Virus record (IMG/VR): IMGVR_UViG_3300045988_096863
DNA: 38,282 nt
Source of the DNA: a virus
Reading direction: 5' to 3' (one strand)
Shown here piece after piece: positions 3,107 to 15,844 of this stretch (position 1 is the first letter of the stretch; every line of letters starts with the position of its first letter). The notes below the pieces were generated by a model, which saw only the letters and a program-made list of their open reading frames with translations, searched no databases and was not told the DNA's origin. The position numbers and the translations under genes were made by a program.

Positions 3107-3119
3107 AATTATATCATTT

Positions 3120-5746: not shown

Positions 5747-7214
5747 TATTCATAACTCCATTCCGATCAACTGAATAATCACCGCTTGCCGATTGTTCTT
5801 TCATCATGTCAACAATGTCTTGTGGGTTCGTCACGCCAGGTAACTGCTGATATAGATATTTCTGTGGCAAGGTAGCTCCAGCTTGAACCAACGCTTGAAT
5901 TTGACTAATGCTGTCGGCTGGCAAATTATCGCGGAATGTGAACGTCAATTCCTGTGGGTCAAACGTCCAATCGCCATGAATAGAGTTTTCAATGTTACTG
6001 ATAATCTGATAGCGTGCATATAATCCACGTTCAAACATACGACGCTTAGTGCTTGCCAATTCGACAGTGCCTAATACTTTATATTGCATAGCAACACCAG
6101 AACTGTTACTTGCGAAATTCTCATCGGTTAAATCAGGTGTATGGCTGAATTTATGAATATCCCCCGCCACGCGCTTTTTATATGCTTCAGATCCCACCAC
6201 ATCATAGGACTTGTTAATGTATTTGGCGTCAACCGAAGTCTGTGTACCATTAACCGTCATTCCTGACTTCAGCAATAGCATGTTTGAATCTTTCATTTCC
6301 TTAATCAATTCAAGCTTATCTTTAGCAAGCTTTGCCATTGCATTTTCATCGTTAGGGTCAATTGTGCTCATAATATCCGACCCCTCGAACAAAGTATCAA
6401 TATCGCCTTGGATAATCAGCATGGCTTCGTTTAAATCAGTCATGTAATTTGCTGTATCTGATTGTGCAGCATCATAAAGGTCAATCAACGGCAAAACATT
6501 TTCAAAGTCGCCCAAACGGAAATTACTATTATCAAATTCAACAACTGGGAACGTTGTGATCGATTTCGCTGTATCAACTGTCATTTTCCCCATGATTGGT
6601 GTCGGCTTATAAAGTGTATATGTGTCAGCAGTCCAAGTTTCAGGAACATAATTAATTGTTGACACTTGGTTATCATCTACCAATTCGATCTGGTGATAAC
6701 GCACGGCCATGATTGGTTTAGGATCAACGTCAGTCGAATAAATGACGAACGTGTCCAGTGGATCCAGCTTAGCCAAATGTTCTTCATTATCTTCGCCACG
6801 ATAGACATATTCATACGCCCGTCCGTAACGCGTCATATCCAAAAACAGATCATAGTTCTCTGCGTCAACATCATTGGCTTTATTGAACGTGTCGAATCCA
6901 TCGTTATTACCATCATCAGGCAGCTTAACATTAATCGGATTACCAACTGAATAAGACGTTTGGAAATCAGCAATATATTTTGCGAACGAGTGGGTAGCTC
7001 GATGATCGGCCTTGCCATCTTCATGCCGTCTTGATTGTTTATCAAGAATCTTTCGGTTGTACCCCTGATAATAGTCATCCAACGTTTCTAATCGTGGCCG
7101 CTGATAATTGAAATGATGCGTAATAAATTTCATAACTTTATCAGGCGTTAAATTTTCCAATGATTCTTGGTAAATCAAATTAGCCTGCTTGTGTTTTGTT
7201 AAATCGTAATCCAT
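5682..7214 (-). CDS. Portal protein (SPP1 gp6-like)
   Basis: 510 aa, immediately downstream of terL, with a GGAGG RBS. Confidence 0.85.
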   Translation of the reverse strand: MDYDLTKHKQANLIYQESLENLTPDKVMKFITHHFNYQRPRLETLDDYYQGYNRKILDKQSRRHEDGKADHRATHSFAKYIADFQTSYSVGNPINVKLPDDGNNDGFDTFNKANDVDAENYDLFLDMTRYGRAYEYVYRGEDNEEHLAKLDPLDTFVIYSTDVDPKPIMAVRYHQIELVDDNQVSTINYVPETWTADTYTLYKPTPIMGKMTVDTAKSITTFPVVEFDNSNFRLGDFENVLPLIDLYDAAQSDTANYMTDLNEAMLIIQGDIDTLFEGSDIMSTIDPNDENAMAKLAKDKLELIKEMKDSNMLLLKSGMTVNGTQTSVDAKYINKSYDVVGSEAYKKRVAGDIHKFSHTPDLTDENFASNSSGVAMQYKVLGTVELASTKRRMFERGLYARYQIISNIENSIHGDWTFDPQELTFTFRDNLPADSISQIQALVQAGATLPQKYLYQQLPGVTNPQDIVDMMKEQSASGDYSVDRNGVMNNDGQTNTTTAPNDEGVRGRQG

Positions 7215-7224
7215 GCTAAGCCTC

Positions 7225-7521
7225 CTATAATCCTAAATTCTTTAATGTTGATACACGTTCCTGATAATTCATATATTTACCAGCACGAACGAACATATAC
7301 TTCTCAAGTGCATAGCGGAGGGCGTCACAATTATGCACAATAACGCCACCATTAACTGCAAAGTTATGGTGGTTATTTACATACATGTCGTAGACATCTT
7401 CATATCCGTAAAAATTAATTGACTTGATTTTCACGCCTTTTGGCAAACGAGAGCTTTGAGGCGCAACTACGTGAGCAGGTTTCTTTTTTTGAATATTTGT
7501 TTGCACTGAATTTGGTTCCAC
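7225..7521 (-). CDS. terL: Intein C-terminal fragment fused to the TerL C-extein (last 34 aa of terminase)
   Basis: Contains ...KIKSINFYGYEDVYDMYVNNHHNFAVNGGVIVHN|CDALRYALEKYMF... Intein blocks F and G end in HN, followed by the +1 Cys and the TerL DALRY nuclease motif. Same reading frame as 8101..9576. The start codon is uncertain: GTG at 7521 or GTG at 7434. Confidence 0.8.
   Translation of the reverse strand: MEPNSVQTNIQKKKPAHVVAPQSSRLPKGVKIKSINFYGYEDVYDMYVNNHHNFAVNGGVIVHNCDALRYALEKYMFVRAGKYMNYQERVSTLKNLGL
7330..7434 (-). other. IntC core (35 codons, (M/V)KIKSINF...VIVHN)
   Basis: Size and pattern match natural split-intein C fragments. Asn codon is 7330..7332 and the +1 Cys codon is 7327..7329. 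Confidence 0.75.
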
Positions 7522-8050
7522 AGACTATACACGTCCTTTCTACATCATCAATGTGGTTATTTCTACGCCATTTTGACTTACAAGCGTTTGAACAGAAACG
7601 GTTGTGCCCATTATCTTGTGCTAAAAATGTTTTCCCACATTGCTCACAGACAAATTCCTTTTTGGCATACAATTTGTCTTTAGTCATCTCGTAATGTTTG
7701 AGGTGCCACTCATGGCCTTCGGCAGAAGCGTGCCATTTAGGTGCTGATTCAATCCCAAGTTGATGGAATTCAGAAAACCATTCTGGATTGTTTTTAACCC
7801 TTTCGACACCATGCAAGTGCTGATGGTCATGTGAGGAAAGACAGACAAGATTGGAAATATCATTGTTGTCTTTGTTTTTATCAATGTGGTGGACGTCATA
7901 ACCGGGCTTTATTGTACCGTGATACTTTTCCCAAATATAGCGGTGCAATCGCTTAGGTTTTCTTTCCTTTGCAATAAATTGGTTGCACTGCCAATATCCA
8001 CTTTTATTATCTTTTACAAAACGATAGCCGTCTACAATAACGGATTCCAT
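7415..8050 (-). CDS. Free-standing HNH homing endonuclease with two FCS-type zinc fingers, lodged between the intein halves
   Basis: HNH core is HHIDKNKDNNDISNLVCLSSHDHQHLH. Zinc fingers are CEQCGKTF...RFCSNACKSKW and CIVCGTKF...ETCSRSCASKL. It has its own ATG and GGGAG RBS, and lies in a different frame from terL. Confidence 0.85.
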   Translation of the reverse strand: MESVIVDGYRFVKDNKSGYWQCNQFIAKERKPKRLHRYIWEKYHGTIKPGYDVHHIDKNKDNNDISNLVCLSSHDHQHLHGVERVKNNPEWFSEFHQLGIESAPKWHASAEGHEWHLKHYEMTKDKLYAKKEFVCEQCGKTFLAQDNGHNRFCSNACKSKWRRNNHIDDVERTCIVCGTKFSANKYSKKETCSRSCASKLSFAKRRENQVN

Positions 8051-8070
8051 AAGATCATCTCCCTACACAC

Positions 8071-8079
8071 ATTATACCA
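8071..8079 (-). promoter_or_regulatory. Extended -10 promoter (TGGTATAAT) for the intein-associated HNH gene
   Basis: Minus strand reads CATGGTATAATGTG, located 21 nt upstream of the HNH ATG in the 50-nt gap after the IntN stop. Confidence 0.55.
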
Positions 8080-8100
8080 TGTATAGAGTATCTTGGCGCA

Positions 8101-9576
8101 TTAAATTGAGATAATCTCATCATTTTCTGTCAGATCGCCTAACTCTTTCCAACCGTTTTTGGTGAGAAACTTATGGTCGGCCGTTGCTTTGACTGTTCGC
8201 CCATCTTCTAATTCGATTTCAAATACCGCCGCGTGCTCTCTCGTTTTGCATACGTTGCTAAACTCGTCAGTCGTTACGTTTCCCGTTTCAGTGTCAAGAC
8301 TATAAACGTTACCAGACTTACCCACTAGCTCACTGATTGGCTTGCTGCCGTTAGTGGTTTCAACTAATGTATCACCAGTCAAGCAGGCATGGTTATTCGC
8401 ATCTTTCGGTTTGTTCAGCCAATTGCCCTCTTTGTCCTTATCATAAACGTAAGTGTTAAATTCCTCCATCAATCCTTTAACACGCGGATGCACAACGAAT
8501 CGGTAAGACTGCATGTATTGGATTCCTTGAATAACACTGTCCTTGCCTTTACCTGATGGCTTGATATTAGGGACACGGTGCTGTTGTGATAATTCGACAA
8601 TCATACGTTGTTCAGCACTATCGGCTGTAATTGGTAATCCGAACGCTTTATGGTTAGCCAATTCTTGTGCAATCTGATTAGTTAATAAATGTTGCTTATA
8701 AAACTCATCATAAATATAAACAATTCGGTTATCCTGATCAACCGCAATAAATTCACCAGCAGTCGGGTCATGTTTGAAACCGAAGTCCAATCCGACTGAC
8801 TTAGGCAGACCAGCAATCTCGTCATAAGAGAAGTCACGCTGCTCAAACAATCCATCGAATACTAGCCCTTCAGCAATACCCCATTCACCGAGAACCGCGA
8901 CACGTGCACGGTTAGGATTGCGCACGAGCATTTCTTTTAGTGAATCGACGTAAGCCTTGTCCAAGTAATTGTTATCTTTATACGTTGTTGTAAATGCTCT
9001 GGTGTTTGTTCGCTGCTTGTCTTTGTCAAAAAATTCAGACTTCAACCAATGGCGATCTGACCACGGGTTAAACGTTAATATCGACTGGTAGAATCCACGC
9101 GGATCATCTAACTCACCACGCAACGATTCTTCAACCGTATTAAATCCATCTAATGACTTCAACTCAAAACATTCCTCGTACCAAGCTCGACATAATTGGC
9201 CGACCACCGGGGTAATCGATGTAATCTTTAATGGACTATCCATTCCTCTGAAAAATATCTTTTGACCAGTAGGTTTATAAGTTACTTCCAAAGGTGACGT
9301 TGTCCATTTGAACAGTTCATATACACCTAACGATGCTGCAACCTTTTTTAAGGTAGCAAACGTACTATCTTTGTGAGTTGTAAAATACTGCCTAATCACT
9401 AGCCAATTTACATATGGCCGTGTGATTGTATCAATGATCACTTTCTCGGCAGCAGCATACGACTTCCCAGATCCACGAGACCCTTTGTAAACCAGATACC
9501 TATCTCGACTATTGAACATCGGGTAATACGCTTTAGAAACGATGTCAGGTACGTTTAAATCGATTGTGTTAGCCAT
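8101..9576 (-). CDS. terL: Terminase large subunit N-extein (397 aa) fused to intein N-terminal fragment (94 aa)
   Basis: Walker A YKGSRGSGKS. Nuclease motifs GLDFGFKHDPTA and ITADSAEQ. Then NNHA|CLTGDTLVE (block A) and KATADHKFLT (block B), ending at TAA 8101..8103. The start is taken as ATG 9576, which overlaps the terS stop. Confidence 0.88.
   Translation of the reverse strand: MANTIDLNVPDIVSKAYYPMFNSRDRYLVYKGSRGSGKSYAAAEKVIIDTITRPYVNWLVIRQYFTTHKDSTFATLKKVAASLGVYELFKWTTSPLEVTYKPTGQKIFFRGMDSPLKITSITPVVGQLCRAWYEECFELKSLDGFNTVEESLRGELDDPRGFYQSILTFNPWSDRHWLKSEFFDKDKQRTNTRAFTTTYKDNNYLDKAYVDSLKEMLVRNPNRARVAVLGEWGIAEGLVFDGLFEQRDFSYDEIAGLPKSVGLDFGFKHDPTAGEFIAVDQDNRIVYIYDEFYKQHLLTNQIAQELANHKAFGLPITADSAEQRMIVELSQQHRVPNIKPSGKGKDSVIQGIQYMQSYRFVVHPRVKGLMEEFNTYVYDKDKEGNWLNKPKDANNHACLTGDTLVETTNGSKPISELVGKSGNVYSLDTETGNVTTDEFSNVCKTREHAAVFEIELEDGRTVKATADHKFLTKNGWKELGDLTENDEIISI
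8104..8385 (-). other. IntN (Cys1 codon 8383..8385; blocks A and B)
   Basis: CLTGDTLVETTNG...GRTVKATADHKFLTKNGWKELGDLTENDEIISI followed by a stop. Confidence 0.8.
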
Positions 9577-10105
9577 TGTCATCACCATCTTCTGGAAGAT
9601 GCACATTCACGACTACTTGGCTATCTGCTGAACCATCGGCCTGCTTAACACGCAGTTCGGCAAGTTCTGCATCCGCCTTAATTTTACGAGCGCGTTGCTT
9701 CTCAATTTCCTTACTCTCATTTTTAAGCTGACCGCCTAACTTAAACCAAAGCTCCGCCGCATTGACCTGTTCTTTAGTTGGGGCTGGCGAAGTCATGGTT
9801 TCGTCAGTAACAATTTCATCTTTGATATTGTCCCTTTTTGTAAAACTATGAGTAATCGGTTTGCCTGACGCGATTCGGTAAATATTCATCAACACTTCGT
9901 CTGCATCGTCAGATTCTTTTTGTTCAACTTTTTTGGTTTTACTTGAAATATATTTACTGATTCCAGCATTTTCAAGTAATTGATGTGTCGCGTTTTTAGC
10001 GGTTGCCGGAGCATACCCAGCATATAATGCTGACTGATAAGCATTGTGTGTTCTAATCCACTCATTGGCAAATTTACGCTGTTGAGTACTTATTGACTTA
10101 GTCAT
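9569..10105 (-). CDS. terS: Terminase small subunit
   Basis: QQRKFANEWIRTHNAYQSALYAGYAPATAKNATHQLLENAGISKYI is the typical phage small terminase HTH pattern. It lies immediately upstream of terL and overlaps it. Confidence 0.85.
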   Translation of the reverse strand: MTKSISTQQRKFANEWIRTHNAYQSALYAGYAPATAKNATHQLLENAGISKYISSKTKKVEQKESDDADEVLMNIYRIASGKPITHSFTKRDNIKDEIVTDETMTSPAPTKEQVNAAELWFKLGGQLKNESKEIEKQRARKIKADAELAELRVKQADGSADSQVVVNVHLPEDGDDNG

Positions 10106-10733: not shown

Positions 10734-11234
10734 TTATTCAGCATCGGCATTCTCGAACCGATAGCCTCCAGTTTGCTTTAATCTGCCTTTAATAACAGCA
10801 TTAATGTTTGGCTGTTGAAGCCCCAGCACTCGGCTCGCTTCGTGTTGTGATGAAAACCGAGATACTTCTAGCGTGGTTAAGTTTACTGCTAACACTGGTC
10901 GCCCTAATGCTTCTCCAAAATCTTCTTGATATTGGCGGTTATATTTTGACGTACACCATTCTAAATTTTCAGCGTTGTTGTTAGATCTATTACAATCTTT
11001 GTGATTAACCATCGGTAAGCTGTTAGGATTATGAACAAATGTTTCTGCAACTAACCGATGCACCAACTTATTAACTTTTTTGCCATTCACGCGAAAGCTT
11101 ACTCGCATATAGCCACCTCGATCTGGATGATTTGTATAATAGTGTCCTTTAACTGACCTTACTCTACCGAATTAACTAACTTCTATTTTATCAATTTCCG
11201 GATGTCTCCACCAAATTTCAGTTTCATTTTCCAT
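10734..11234 (-). pseudogene. NUMOD4/HNH_3 homing endonuclease with in-frame TAA at codon 21 (11172..11174)
   Basis: From ATG 11234 it reads MENETEIWWRHPEIDKIEVS*FGRVRSVKGH...YMRVSFRVNGKKVNKLVHRLVAETFVHNPNSLPMVNHKD... Paralogues have EVS(T/I)FGRVR at that position. Confidence 0.8.
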
Positions 11235-11236
11235 AA

Positions 11237-12412
11237 CTATTCTCCCAAATTTCCTTTCAGTGTATACTCTGCAAGCAAACCGTTTGTATCAAATTCCAAC
11301 AGCTTCATTGTTTTCTGACCCATCACAAAGCCGTTTTTGGTTTCGTAACCATCAGCAGGCTTCGGCGTTTCGAATTGCCTTTGGATTGTTCCGCCTGTGT
11401 CTTTAACGATTTCTGTATGGTAGTGGCCGAAGTGCACTTCTCGCCATACGCTGTTTGCCCAAACTTCTGAATACTCATTAGCAAACAACGGTGATAGCTT
11501 AGCCTTTGCTACGTCTCCATGTGCTAACATGATTCCAACTTTGCCATACGTGAAAACTTGTCTGTACGATCCTGGGTTGAATACATCTAGTTGTGGGTAT
11601 TTTGCTTTAATCATTTCTATAAATGCCCAATGGAGATCAAAGTCATGGTTTCCTCCGATGGCATACAATTCGGTAACATCTGAATTTTCGATTGCTGGTT
11701 CAATGATGCTTTTAACAAATTCAGCAGCGTCTTGCCATGCTTTAATCATATCGACATGATCTAACTGGGTATTTTTCACAGTTTGTGTCTTTTTTAAGAA
11801 ATCACTGTGTAACGTGTCGCCTCCAACTTCGATCACAATCTTTTCAAATGGATGCGAATTAATGATTGTTAAAATCTCATCAAGATACGGCTTCATATTG
11901 TCATAACTATTAATTCCGAAGTGCAAGTCAAACATCGGAACCACCAGCATACGTTTTAAGGCACCTCCAGTGCGTTTTAAGCGCGCTTTATTAACACTGT
12001 GATTAATTATACCTGATAGTTCTAAAATGCTCACATTACTCTTAGGTTTAACTTTGACGGTGATACTGTATTGAGGTTGAGTGCCATCTTCAGTGGAATG
12101 CTGCTCATACACTTTGTACTGTGAACTAATCAAATCGAATTTGTCCGGATCATAACCGGTTAGCATGAGCATGGTACGTGGTGATTTATCCGGTTCATGT
12201 TTTAAACGCATTAGGATTGTGGCCGTTTGTGTGCCATTTGCTTCAGTCGTAACTTCTTTGAAATCTTCAGCTTTTGTATTAGCAAGGTGACGTTGTCTAT
12301 AATGCTTCACCGCTGCACGTGTCCTGCCCAGCCTTTCGGCAATCTTTGAATCCGACAATCCAATGGCGACTAATTGTTCAATTTTATTTTTGTCTTCGTT
12401 TGTCCATTTCAT
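11237..12412 (-). CDS. HTH domain fused to calcineurin-like metallophosphoesterase
   Basis: N-terminus IGLSDSKIAERLGRTRAAVKHYRQRH looks like an HTH. Phosphoesterase motifs present are DLHFG, GGDTLH, GGNHD, LAHGD and GHYH. Confidence 0.7.
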   Translation of the reverse strand: MKWTNEDKNKIEQLVAIGLSDSKIAERLGRTRAAVKHYRQRHLANTKAEDFKEVTTEANGTQTATILMRLKHEPDKSPRTMLMLTGYDPDKFDLISSQYKVYEQHSTEDGTQPQYSITVKVKPKSNVSILELSGIINHSVNKARLKRTGGALKRMLVVPMFDLHFGINSYDNMKPYLDEILTIINSHPFEKIVIEVGGDTLHSDFLKKTQTVKNTQLDHVDMIKAWQDAAEFVKSIIEPAIENSDVTELYAIGGNHDFDLHWAFIEMIKAKYPQLDVFNPGSYRQVFTYGKVGIMLAHGDVAKAKLSPLFANEYSEVWANSVWREVHFGHYHTEIVKDTGGTIQRQFETPKPADGYETKNGFVMGQKTMKLLEFDTNGLLAEYTLKGNLGE

Positions 12413-13008
12413 AGTTTTAAGGTTTCCCTTCCCTGTTTATTATTTACTATATTTTCACCAATCTCGTGTAGCTTGTGATTAATAATATTATCAGCATTAT
12501 CATCGGCGTTTGTAAACCAAAAATGGCCTGCGCGTTTTCGCTTTCCTTTAATAACAGCGCTAATACTTCCTGAGCTAATTTCCAAAACTCGGCTCGCTTC
12601 ACGTTGTGAACGGAAACTTGAAACTTCTAACGTTGTCAGATTAATTGCAAAAACAGGTTGCCCTAAAACTTCTGTTTGTGAAAATCCATGTTTTTCACGA
12701 TACTGGCGATTATATGAACGTGTACACCATTCAATGTTACTAACGTTATTATTCGTTCTATTTCCGTCCTTATGGTTAACTTCAGGTAAAATATTTGGGT
12801 TTGGTATGAATGTTTGAGCTACAAGCCGGTGAACCTTTTTATTAAATGATTTACCATTAATACGAAAGTGTACGTACAAATAGCCATCACGGTTTAGCTG
12901 AATTGCATAACAGTGCCCTTTTAATGTCCGAACCCTACCAAAAGTGCTAACTTCTAGTTTTTCAAAATCCGGATGTGCTCTCCAAATTTCAGATTCATTT
13001 TTAGCCAT
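12409..13008 (-). CDS. NUMOD4/HNH_3 homing endonuclease (intact paralogue)
   Basis: MAKNESEIWRAHPDFEKLEVSTFGRVRTL...HRLVAQTFIPNPNILPEVNHKDGNRTNNNVSNIEW..., with a C-terminal nuclease-associated DNA-binding repeat. ATG 13008 follows AGGGGAATAGTT. Confidence 0.85.
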   Translation of the reverse strand: MAKNESEIWRAHPDFEKLEVSTFGRVRTLKGHCYAIQLNRDGYLYVHFRINGKSFNKKVHRLVAQTFIPNPNILPEVNHKDGNRTNNNVSNIEWCTRSYNRQYREKHGFSQTEVLGQPVFAINLTTLEVSSFRSQREASRVLEISSGSISAVIKGKRKRAGHFWFTNADDNADNIINHKLHEIGENIVNNKQGRETLKL

Positions 13009-13024
13009 AACTATTCCCCTAATT

Positions 13025-13300
13025 TCATTTTTCAATGCCTACTTCTTTGAATTTTATCATAAACGGCTTTAACAACTGGGATAATTCGTTGAAGCAATCT
13101 ATATACTTTTCAGTTGAGAACGGCACATATGAATTAACACCTAAATGTGAAAACGAAAACAATTTCTTGAAATCCTGGCGACTGTGAATATTAACTTTAG
13201 GATTACCGTTGTTGTAATAAAACGTGATTGGAATTTCATTTTTATTGGCAATGTCAATAATGATTTTTAATTCTGCCGGTGAATATGGATAATTAATCAT
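13025..13300 (-). CDS. Hypothetical protein
   Basis: 91-aa ORF with its start coupled (ATGA) to the upstream small ORF. Confidence 0.5.
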   Translation of the reverse strand: MINYPYSPAELKIIIDIANKNEIPITFYYNNGNPKVNIHSRQDFKKLFSFSHLGVNSYVPFSTEKYIDCFNELSQLLKPFMIKFKEVGIEK

Positions 13301-15772: not shown

Positions 15773-15844
15773 TACTCGTAGATTGGCTTGAACAATCGAC
15801 CCCTCAATTATAAGTTGAGCGCTCTACCCCTGAGCTATACGAGT
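15773..15844 (-). tRNA. tRNA-Ile, anticodon UAU (reads AUA)
   Basis: Hand fold gives a full cloverleaf: ACTCGTA TA GCTC AGGGGTA GAGC G CTCAA CTTATAA TTGAG GGGTC GATTG TTCAAGC CAATC TACGAGT A. CCA is not encoded. Confidence 0.8.

Follow-up and report, generated by a model that had tools for sequence, protein, structure and literature searches.

How does a phage package its genome when the gene for its packaging nuclease is interrupted inside a catalytic metal site? The locus that raises this question lies in IMG/VR record IMGVR_UViG_3300045988_096863, a viral sequence of 38,282 nucleotides (nt) that we refer to here as the window. Just one gene for the terminase large subunit (terL) was found in it, that of a phiJL-1-like, Lactobacillus-type phage, and this gene is divided on the minus strand. 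TerL residues 1-397 (9576..8386) and 398-431 are encoded on the same strand, carry the N-terminal and C-terminal halves of an intein (IntN and IntC) at their facing ends, and have an endonuclease gene between them, the arrangement known as a fractured gene (Dassa, London, Stoddard, Schueler-Furman & Pietrokovski 2009, NAR 37:2560; PMC2677866). An earlier, sequence-only reading of the window had proposed this anatomy of IntN, free-standing HNH gene, and IntC. Each test applied here agreed with it, and the features that it listed (sequence motifs, stop codon, 50-nt spacer, 211-aa HNH open reading frame [ORF], IntC, and 34 C-terminal residues) are all present on the minus strand at matching coordinates. 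We consider it quite probable that the locus is a fractured terL expressed as three chains, whose terminase parts would be rejoined by protein trans-splicing; this is the best explanation because the insertion is precise, recurs among phages, is under selection, falls within a metal site, and carries no intron signal that would point to repair at the RNA level.

A terL gene divided within an intein

The N-extein contains the motifs GSRGSGKS, GLDFGF, and ITADSAEQ and is 85% identical to residues 1-407 of the TerL of Lactobacillus phage phiJL-1, the nearest phage in our collection. It is matched by the Pfam profiles Terminase_3 (E 2.5e-49) and Terminase_3C (E 2.4e-23, the match halting at profile position 146 of 155). 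Back in the terL frame, the 3' gene reads ...VYDMYVNNHHNFAVNGGVIVHN/CDALRY... (the slash marks the splice junction), with TerL residues 398-431 at 7329..7228. Joined, the exteins give a predicted spliced TerL of 431 aa. The TerL of phiJL-1 is uninterrupted (440 aa; 81% nucleotide identity over the exteins), and the concatenated window exteins align with it end to end. The sole change at the junction is from DANNHA-I-DALRY in phiJL-1 to DANNHA-C-DALRY in the window, an Ile-to-Cys replacement at position +1, and the phiJL-1 site consists of AACCATGCA followed directly by ATCGACGCT. The insertion is exact relative to this intein-less allele, of the kind that the sequence-only reading had hoped to find among related phages. 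When the intein/HNH segment was searched as DNA against the phage collection, nothing was returned beyond the phiJL-1 extein matches.

Both halves of the interrupting element score as intein. The Pfam profile Intein_splicing matches residues 410-489 of the 5' gene (profile positions 7-93, E 2.2e-12) and also the downstream ORF (profile positions 121-155, E 1e-6). When fused, the halves give a full-length alignment with the solved structure of the Npu DnaB mini-intein (PDB 4o1r, E 4e-18), the DnaE and NrdJ-1 inteins being the next-best alignments in the structural database (4o1r, 4kl5, 2keq, and 7qil span E 4e-18 to 4e-13), and the IntC core aligns with the IntC region of Npu DnaE. The residues of a class 1 intein are all present, namely Cys1 (C-LTGD...), KA-T-AD-H in block B, HHNFAVNGGVIV-HN, and the +1 Cys, and the same splicing residues were found in the loci L005, L020, and L021 and in the isolated phages CL2 and BL3. 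Canonical split inteins comprise an IntN of ~90-125 aa with blocks A and B and an IntC of ~35-55 aa with blocks F and G; here, the 94-aa IntN carries blocks A and B, and IntC amounts to 35 aa in its core and to 64 aa should translation start at GTG 7521. The endonuclease-insertion loop in which the chain is broken is also that of the natural split of Npu DnaE, where the break comes ~10 residues later. As judged by these alignments, the halves together make up a single divided Hint domain, which bears out the earlier assignment of their motifs to Hint-domain blocks and of the break to the canonical loop.

A contiguous allele points in the same direction. In L011, a contig from JGI 3300023205 (protein P0012), a mini-intein reads ...DEIISI-APQSSRLPKG-VKIKSIKF...VHN-CDAFRY, and the window differs from it by an exact indel of 639 nt (8103..7465). 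At the level of sequence, this allele proves that the halves belong together.

The break separates two ligands of one metal ion

The nuclease domain of the window TerL aligns with that of SPP1 gp2 (2wbn, E 3e-16), and with D266 as anchor the junction NNH-A/C-D corresponds to H400-T401-I402-D403. In gp2, H400 and D403 are ligands of catalytic metal A, and cleavage and packaging are impaired when either is mutated (PMC3592435). The C-extein supplies the Asp equivalent to D403, so that the intein interrupts the H-x-x-D metal-binding motif; since the insertion falls between the equivalents of H400 and D403, two ligands of one metal ion are encoded on two polypeptides.

Three polypeptides would be produced from the locus: TerL residues 1-397 with the 94-aa IntN, the 211-aa HNH/zinc-ribbon protein, and IntC with the last 34 TerL residues. 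IntN and IntC would associate into one Hint domain, and class 1 trans-splicing (Cys1, TxxH, terminal HN, Cys+1) would join Ala397 to Cys398. The product would be a terminase of 431 aa and about 49 kDa, in which the H-x-x-D motif that binds metal A in the RNase H-like nuclease is whole again.

The intein halves might also do no more than dock the 491-aa and ~98-aa fragments, giving a two-chain terminase without ligation; the HNH-split NrdA of phage Aeh1 works as two chains (PMC2677866). We regard such non-covalent complementation as improbable. Cys1, TxxH, HN, and Cys+1 are retained across lineages with exteins as low as 39% identical, and the change from Ile to Cys at +1 is seen only in intein-bearing alleles, with L024 as the one exception. 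In addition, an unspliced intein of ~130-160 aa would sit in the H-x-x-D metal site.

Recurrence, selection, and mobility of the element

The same three-ORF layout is present in L020, in L021-L023, and in the distant phage group L005-L010, and also in isolated phages, whose annotations do not show it. The coding sequence (CDS) annotated as "terminase large subunit" in Lactobacillus phage CL2 (506-1954) ends in IntN and is followed by an HNH CDS (1967-2590), with IntC and the C-extein lying unannotated in the gap ahead of the portal gene; the junction predicted for its spliced product reads ...AHDHCMDATR.... Brochothrix phage BL3 has an intact IntN-bearing terL (gp2) and an intact 98-aa gp3 that comprises IntC and the C-extein, and between them only HNH residues 140-200, the zinc-ribbon part, remain in the third frame (L013 2223-2411); it is a fractured gene with a decayed endonuclease.

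We scanned IMG/VR with an alignment of the HNH family and classified the best 80 of at least 317 loci, a sample skewed toward close relatives of the query. Fractured loci account for 38 of the 80, and 18 consist of a contiguous intein ORF with the HNH gene in a different frame; another 16 have no detectable intein, eight are partial, and none carries the HNH gene in frame with the intein. In nearly all intein-bearing loci, the element interrupts the H-x-x-D-A-x-R-Y motif of TerL, and at least three codon registers are used. Junctions of the types ...NH/C-IDA.RY, ...NHA/C-DA.RY (that of the window, at 8386/7329), and ...H.IDA/C-RY were seen among L005, L012, L013, L042, L056, L018, and the window. 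The TerL-intein ORF stays open over ~600 nt, with the HNH gene in another frame, in L014 (TJE1), L015 (phiCDHM19), L018 (Highwayman), and the 18 IMG/VR loci of this kind (e.g., L040, L043, and L058). With IntN alone as the query, an exhaustive search returned 3183 relatives; 54 of the 149 best end no more than 8 residues from the protein C terminus.

IntN, IntC, and HNH are all under strong purifying selection. Between the window and L020, both split, the ratio of nonsynonymous to synonymous substitution rates (dN/dS) is 0.06 for IntN, 0.09 for IntC, and 0.05 for HNH, at a dS of about 0.8-0.9, and the ranges across comparisons are 0.04-0.07, 0.09-0.12, and 0.05, respectively. The element is 84-91% identical in nucleotides where the flanking exteins are 65-71% identical and extein synonymous sites are saturated. 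The distant L005 likewise shares 61% of IntN and 61% of HNH residues with the window and 39% of those of the N-extein. Because dN/dS is low and the identity of the element exceeds that of its flanks, these comparisons indicate that the split layout has been kept by selection after the split and that the IntN-HNH-IntC block travels as a unit.

The 211-aa ORF matches the Pfam family HNH_3 (E 4.4e-15) and has two C-terminal CxxC zinc ribbons. Residues H54, H55, N62, N63, N67, H76, and H80 and four CxxC-type pairs are invariant in nine family members, and all are present in the window. The 120 homologues listed of 139 measure 121-249 aa, mostly about 200-220 aa, and none of these 120 has an intein domain. 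The protein would act as a homing endonuclease that cuts the intein-less terL of co-infecting relatives, and repair would then copy the whole 1.06-kb IntN-HNH-IntC block into the cut allele. A homing footprint is seen in the presence/absence polymorphism of the element and in its greater likeness between genomes than that of its flanks, from which we infer a homing endonuclease that would be specific for intein-less terL.

HNH genes are common beside terminase genes, and some of their products stimulate terminase (PMC3592412). The family studied here is almost always found at or beside terL. Its position inside terL could on these grounds reflect functional coupling, the protein being mainly a packaging cofactor, as in cos phages, and not a homing enzyme. 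We find this improbable as well: phiJL-1 and L011 have no HNH gene, and in BL3 it has decayed to the zinc-ribbon remnant beside intact intein halves, so that HNH is dispensable for packaging in close relatives. An element more similar between genomes than its surroundings also fits a mobile element.

Repair at the RNA level and authenticity of the locus

An intron, of group I or another kind, would offer a different way to a continuous product, as removal of the 639-nt cassette would restore an L011-like mini-intein ORF. The cassette length is a multiple of 3, the cassette is exactly absent in L011, L011 has a probable group I intron elsewhere in terL (see below), and group I introns of Firmicute phages often carry HNH genes. 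Such a route is nevertheless very unlikely. No Rfam match was obtained over 7200-8450 at E values up to 10. The non-coding part of the cassette measures only 53 nt and the HNH ORF extends 50 nt beyond the 3' end of the cassette, which leaves no room for a ribozyme core, and, wherever the boundaries are placed, a U preceding the 5' splice site and a G at the intron end are never obtained together. We thus rejected removal of the cassette as a group I or group II intron, for want of an Rfam match, of ribozyme space, and of compatible boundary bases. Moreover, IntN and IntC of L005 and CL2 are in different frames, so cassette excision could not restore one ORF there.

Two translational bypasses were also considered. 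Read-through of the TAA at 8103 was rejected, as it would meet a second stop 23 codons on and six more beyond, and a +1 frameshift at the A7 run, joining HNH to IntC, is left unsupported by the lack of this run in L005 and by the existence of an SD-preceded GTG (SD, Shine-Dalgarno sequence).

The locus is real and not an assembly artefact. At least 18 contigs, each about 38 kb long and taken from different samples, encode an identical HNH protein; three compared contigs from other samples are identical to the window over 7100-9700 save for 0-1 mismatch, at 9472; and a variant that is 99% identical (P0001) stops at the same ...EIISI. The intein frame holds 8 stops over the 639-nt insert. Although the window is a metagenome-type sequence without an isolate and has an A7 run within the HNH/IntC overlap, it is hardly credible that the stop and frame changes are assembly errors or mark a defective relic unable to package, since L005 does without the A7 run, the isolated phages CL2 and BL3 share the layout, all three parts are under strong purifying selection, and the independent identical contigs, the 8 stops, and the single terL make assembly error, read-through, and pseudogene untenable.

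Expression signals and points against trans-splicing

The HNH gene would be translated from its own SD and is probably transcribed from an extended -10 promoter of its own. The candidate -10 motif of the spacer, TGGTATAAT, is found again in L020 and L021, whose spacers otherwise differ. The window has seven copies of TGNTATAAT, all on the coding strand and six of the seven intergenic, compared with a mean of 3.7 in shuffled sequences, both strands taken together. A self-promoted HNH gene, as claimed by the sequence-only reading, is plausible in the light of this recurrence and of the strand and intergenic bias. The other six TGNTATAAT motifs, at 3116, 10370, 17768, 18726, 25119, and 26839 (minus strand), five of them intergenic, are likely extended -10 promoters of this phage. 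In a hairpin predicted at 8088..8061, the loop contains the -10 motif and the 3' arm contains the HNH SD, with the same layout in L020 and L021, and L005 and CL2 have short spacers without a -10 motif. Such a hairpin over the HNH SD resembles the arrangement of phage homing-endonuclease genes noted by Dassa et al. (PMC2677866).

No usable start for IntC precedes GTG 7521; an ATGATG further upstream is closed by two TAG codons. Predicted pairing of the SD with the anti-SD amounts to -13.2 kcal/mol for GTG 7521 (GAAAGGA), compared with +0.7 for GTG 7434, and this SD includes an AGG codon for Arg; AGG accounts for 7% of all Arg codons in the genome. In most fractured loci, an in-frame start with strong SD pairing is present upstream of the IntC core. 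GTG 7521 is the most likely start of IntC translation and would add a leader of 29 aa.

Several points weigh against three separately translated chains that are rejoined by trans-splicing. IntC halves are commonly basic, and here the 35-aa IntC core has a net charge of -1, which the leader would raise to +3, and IntN has one of -9. The choice of IntC start is ambiguous, as GTG 7521 has the only good SD but at a long spacing of 12 nt, and the conservation of this SD is confounded by its position within conserved HNH codons. The leader lacks purifying selection: the five substitutions that distinguish L020 from the window upstream of 7465 leave the HNH protein unaltered and are non-synonymous for the leader, and therefore the leader itself looks unconstrained. 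Finally, the promoter and the hairpin are consensus-level predictions. The spacer site has no -35 element and was not listed by a two-hexamer promoter scan, and the folding z-scores of the hairpin are weak (-0.4 in the window, which is not significant, and 0.05 and -2.1 in the other two lineages).

Table 1. Features of the divided terL locus, in window coordinates
Feature	Coordinates	Strand	Description
terL 5' gene (TerL-N + IntN)	9576..8101	-	491 aa = 397 TerL residues + 94-aa IntN segment
N-extein, TerL residues 1-397	8386..9576	-	Spans the ATPase domain and the greater part of the RNase H-like nuclease domain; ends ...KDANNHA
IntN, 94 codons	8104..8385	-	Cys1 in CLTGDTLVE (block A); KATADH(KFLT) (block B); end ...DEIISI
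TAA stop closing the TerL-N/IntN chain	8101..8103	-	First of 8 intein-frame stops across the cassette
Spacer, 50 nt	8051..8100	-	Candidate extended -10 TGGTATAAT 8079..8071; SD GGGAG 8063..8059, 8 nt ahead of ATG
HNH_3 ORF, 211 aa, free-standing	7415..8050	-	Own ATG (8050) and own SD; frame differs from terL
639-nt cassette	7465..8103	-	Stop + spacer + first 586 nt of the HNH ORF; exactly missing from mini-intein allele L011
Candidate IntC leader, 29 codons	7435..7521	-	Start GTG 7521..7519; overlaps the HNH 3' end, +1 frame
IntC core, 35 codons	7330..7434	-	VKIKSINFYGYEDVYDMYVNNHHNFAVNGGVIVHN; blocks F and G, terminal His-Asn
C-extein, 34 residues	7225..7329	-	Cys+1 (7329..7327), then DALRYALEKYMF...NLGL; ends TAG 7227..7225

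Possible exchange between intein architectures

The contiguous L011 allele also bears on the direction of change. The last 50 nt of the window HNH ORF lie in linker/IntC DNA, in the +1 frame, and window positions 7464..7435 (APQSSRLPKG) correspond to the L011 linker. The HNH tail past the last Cys (CASKLSFAKRR...) is conserved in the free-standing, intein-unrelated family members PAE1, Shemara, EauM-23, and L024, and L011 retains coding capacity for HNH residues 196-211 in the other frame; the L011 linker therefore consists of DNA from the HNH 3' end. The most likely origin of L011 is a fractured ancestor that lost the cassette by deletion, so that a split intein was re-fused, and the allele appears to be a "healed" fractured gene. 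The opposite origin of the window allele, by insertion of HNH into an ancestral mini-intein, is disfavoured by the conserved tail and by residues 196-211 in L011. As we read it, the published gene-breaking model has no such step from split to contiguous.

The hexamer TGCGCC stands at both ends of the cassette (8100..8095 and 7465..7460). The pair may represent microhomology for the insertion or deletion event and is absent from the L005 junctions. In addition, L011 has an insert of ~245 nt without coding capacity (18-266) between the terL codons for ...KIFFRG and (M)DDALKITS, which matches the whole Rfam model Intron_gpI at 24.5 bits (E 0.0012), under the gathering score, and is probably a group I intron in the same terL as the mini-intein.

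Intein-less alleles add further states. L024 (350-480), and also L025 and L026, have an intein-less terL with DANNHA-C-DGLRY, in which TGT (Cys) falls exactly at the +1 Cys of the window, where phiJL-1 has Ile. An HNH homologue (55% identical) in L024-type loci begins 19 nt past the terL stop and overlaps the start of the portal gene. The +1 Cys of L024 is either the footprint of a precise intein loss or a pre-adapted site. Exiguobacterium phage vB_EauM-23 (MH844558; L016 2270-3250) has a terL broken at the same site: TerL ends ...EDKNNH-SMAA* (the asterisk denotes the stop) and is followed by a gap of 212 nt, an HNH homologue, and 142 nt encoding ...NNQ/CDATRYAMEM.... Neither IntN nor IntC was detectable in this locus, and a search for an Rfam group I intron gave a match of 11.9 bits (E 5.4). 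The insert could be an ORF-bearing intron or reflect a broken gene without an intein.

At H-x-x-D-A-x-R-Y, we thus observe split inteins, contiguous inteins with an overprinted HNH gene, loci in which HNH has decayed, and HNH genes just downstream of an intein-less terL that retains the +1 Cys. Tentatively, and with slightly less than an even chance in our estimation, the element at this site may be a record of reversible traffic between intein architectures, driven by one free-standing HNH family that was never fused in frame. On this same tentative reading, an intein placed between two ligands of one catalytic metal could make trans-splicing an assembly checkpoint for the packaging nuclease as well.

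Other genes of the window genome

Two more HNH_3/NUMOD-type ORFs lie on the minus strand upstream of terS, at ~13035..12409 and ~11234..10734 (199 and 166 aa in the gene calls of L002), which brings the HNH genes of this genome to at least three. Between these two is an ORF of 391 aa (12412..11237) without a Pfam match. A tRNA gene is present on the minus strand at 15773..15844 (Rfam RF00005, 65.3 bits), and L005 also has one, just upstream of its terS.

Significance and comparison with known systems

If splicing is confirmed, a virion-assembly enzyme of ordinary phages of lactic acid bacteria depends on protein trans-splicing. The isolated phages CL2 and BL3 make the layout experimentally tractable, which is uncommon for fractured genes, a class first known from metagenomic assemblies. 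The intein is a candidate engineering tool, being a canonical, mesophilic Cys1/Cys+1 pair (94 aa; 35-64 aa) with dozens of natural variants for orthogonal tools. Annotation can also be corrected, since CL2 and the gene calls of L002-L004 show terL as truncated or of odd length and overlook the IntC/C-extein ORF. Finally, the unusually full series of relatives, from intein-less through intein-less with a Cys footprint, mini-intein, overprinted, and fractured to HNH-decayed, offers a test of how homing endonuclease genes and inteins join and part.

The layout is real and widespread, but it is not new in kind. The sequence-only reading was not aware of such an arrangement in a terminase; Dassa et al. 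list phage terminase among eight fractured host enzymes (PMC2677866), and a DNA polymerase B (PolB) gene fractured by an HNH gene is also known, so the claim of novelty fails. A literature search of incomplete coverage returned no account of CL2 or BL3 as cases of this kind, nor of this TerL/HNH family as a feature of Lactobacillus phages.

Several systems share single aspects of the window locus. In phage Aeh1, a free-standing HNH gene, mobE, divides nrdA, the gene of an essential enzyme, into two co-transcribed genes, but no intein is involved and the two chains act non-covalently (PMC2677866). An actinophage preprint on out-of-frame intein endonucleases describes the same class as TJE1, phiCDHM19, Highwayman, and the 18 overprinted IMG/VR loci; its cases are EndoVII-like, Vsr-like, and antisense LAGLIDADG endonucleases and not the HNH family found here, and the window intein, with its 8 stops, is truly split. 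The Npu DnaB mini-intein and the DnaE split inteins are the best whole-Hint matches and share the order of blocks and the loop, yet they have other exteins and no endonuclease gene between the halves, and the DnaE halves are encoded at separate loci.

Natural split inteins of phage TerL are themselves known, and trans-splicing has been demonstrated for GOS-TerL, AceL-TerL, and Cat-TerL (PMC11766414). As compared by description, these have an IntN of 25-37 aa and an IntC of 104-115 aa and are split after block A, unlike the break in the endonuclease loop seen here. Pseudomonas jumbo phage MIJ3, a cultured phage, has an HNH-family ORF between the IntN- and IntC-bearing halves of its PolB gene (PMC6892783). 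It differs in the host gene and in having Ser1/Ser+1 in place of Cys1/Cys+1, and the MIJ3 report is without evidence from populations or selection (PMC6892783).

The closest likeness in overall design is to the fractured genes of Dassa et al., in which ORF overlaps, 5'-untranslated-region hairpins, and control elements arrive with the endonuclease (PMC2677866). Their endonucleases are GIY-YIG or Vsr-like only, HNH being predicted but unobserved (PMC2677866), and the endonuclease of the window is an HNH_3 protein with zinc ribbons. The terminase of that study is gp17-like, from Lake Gatun, with an atypical break and an IntC of 122 aa (PMC2677866). In contrast, the gene studied here encodes a PBSX/SPP1-type TerL (Terminase_3) that is broken at the canonical loop into intein halves of 94 aa and 35-64 aa, and isolated phages carry it too.

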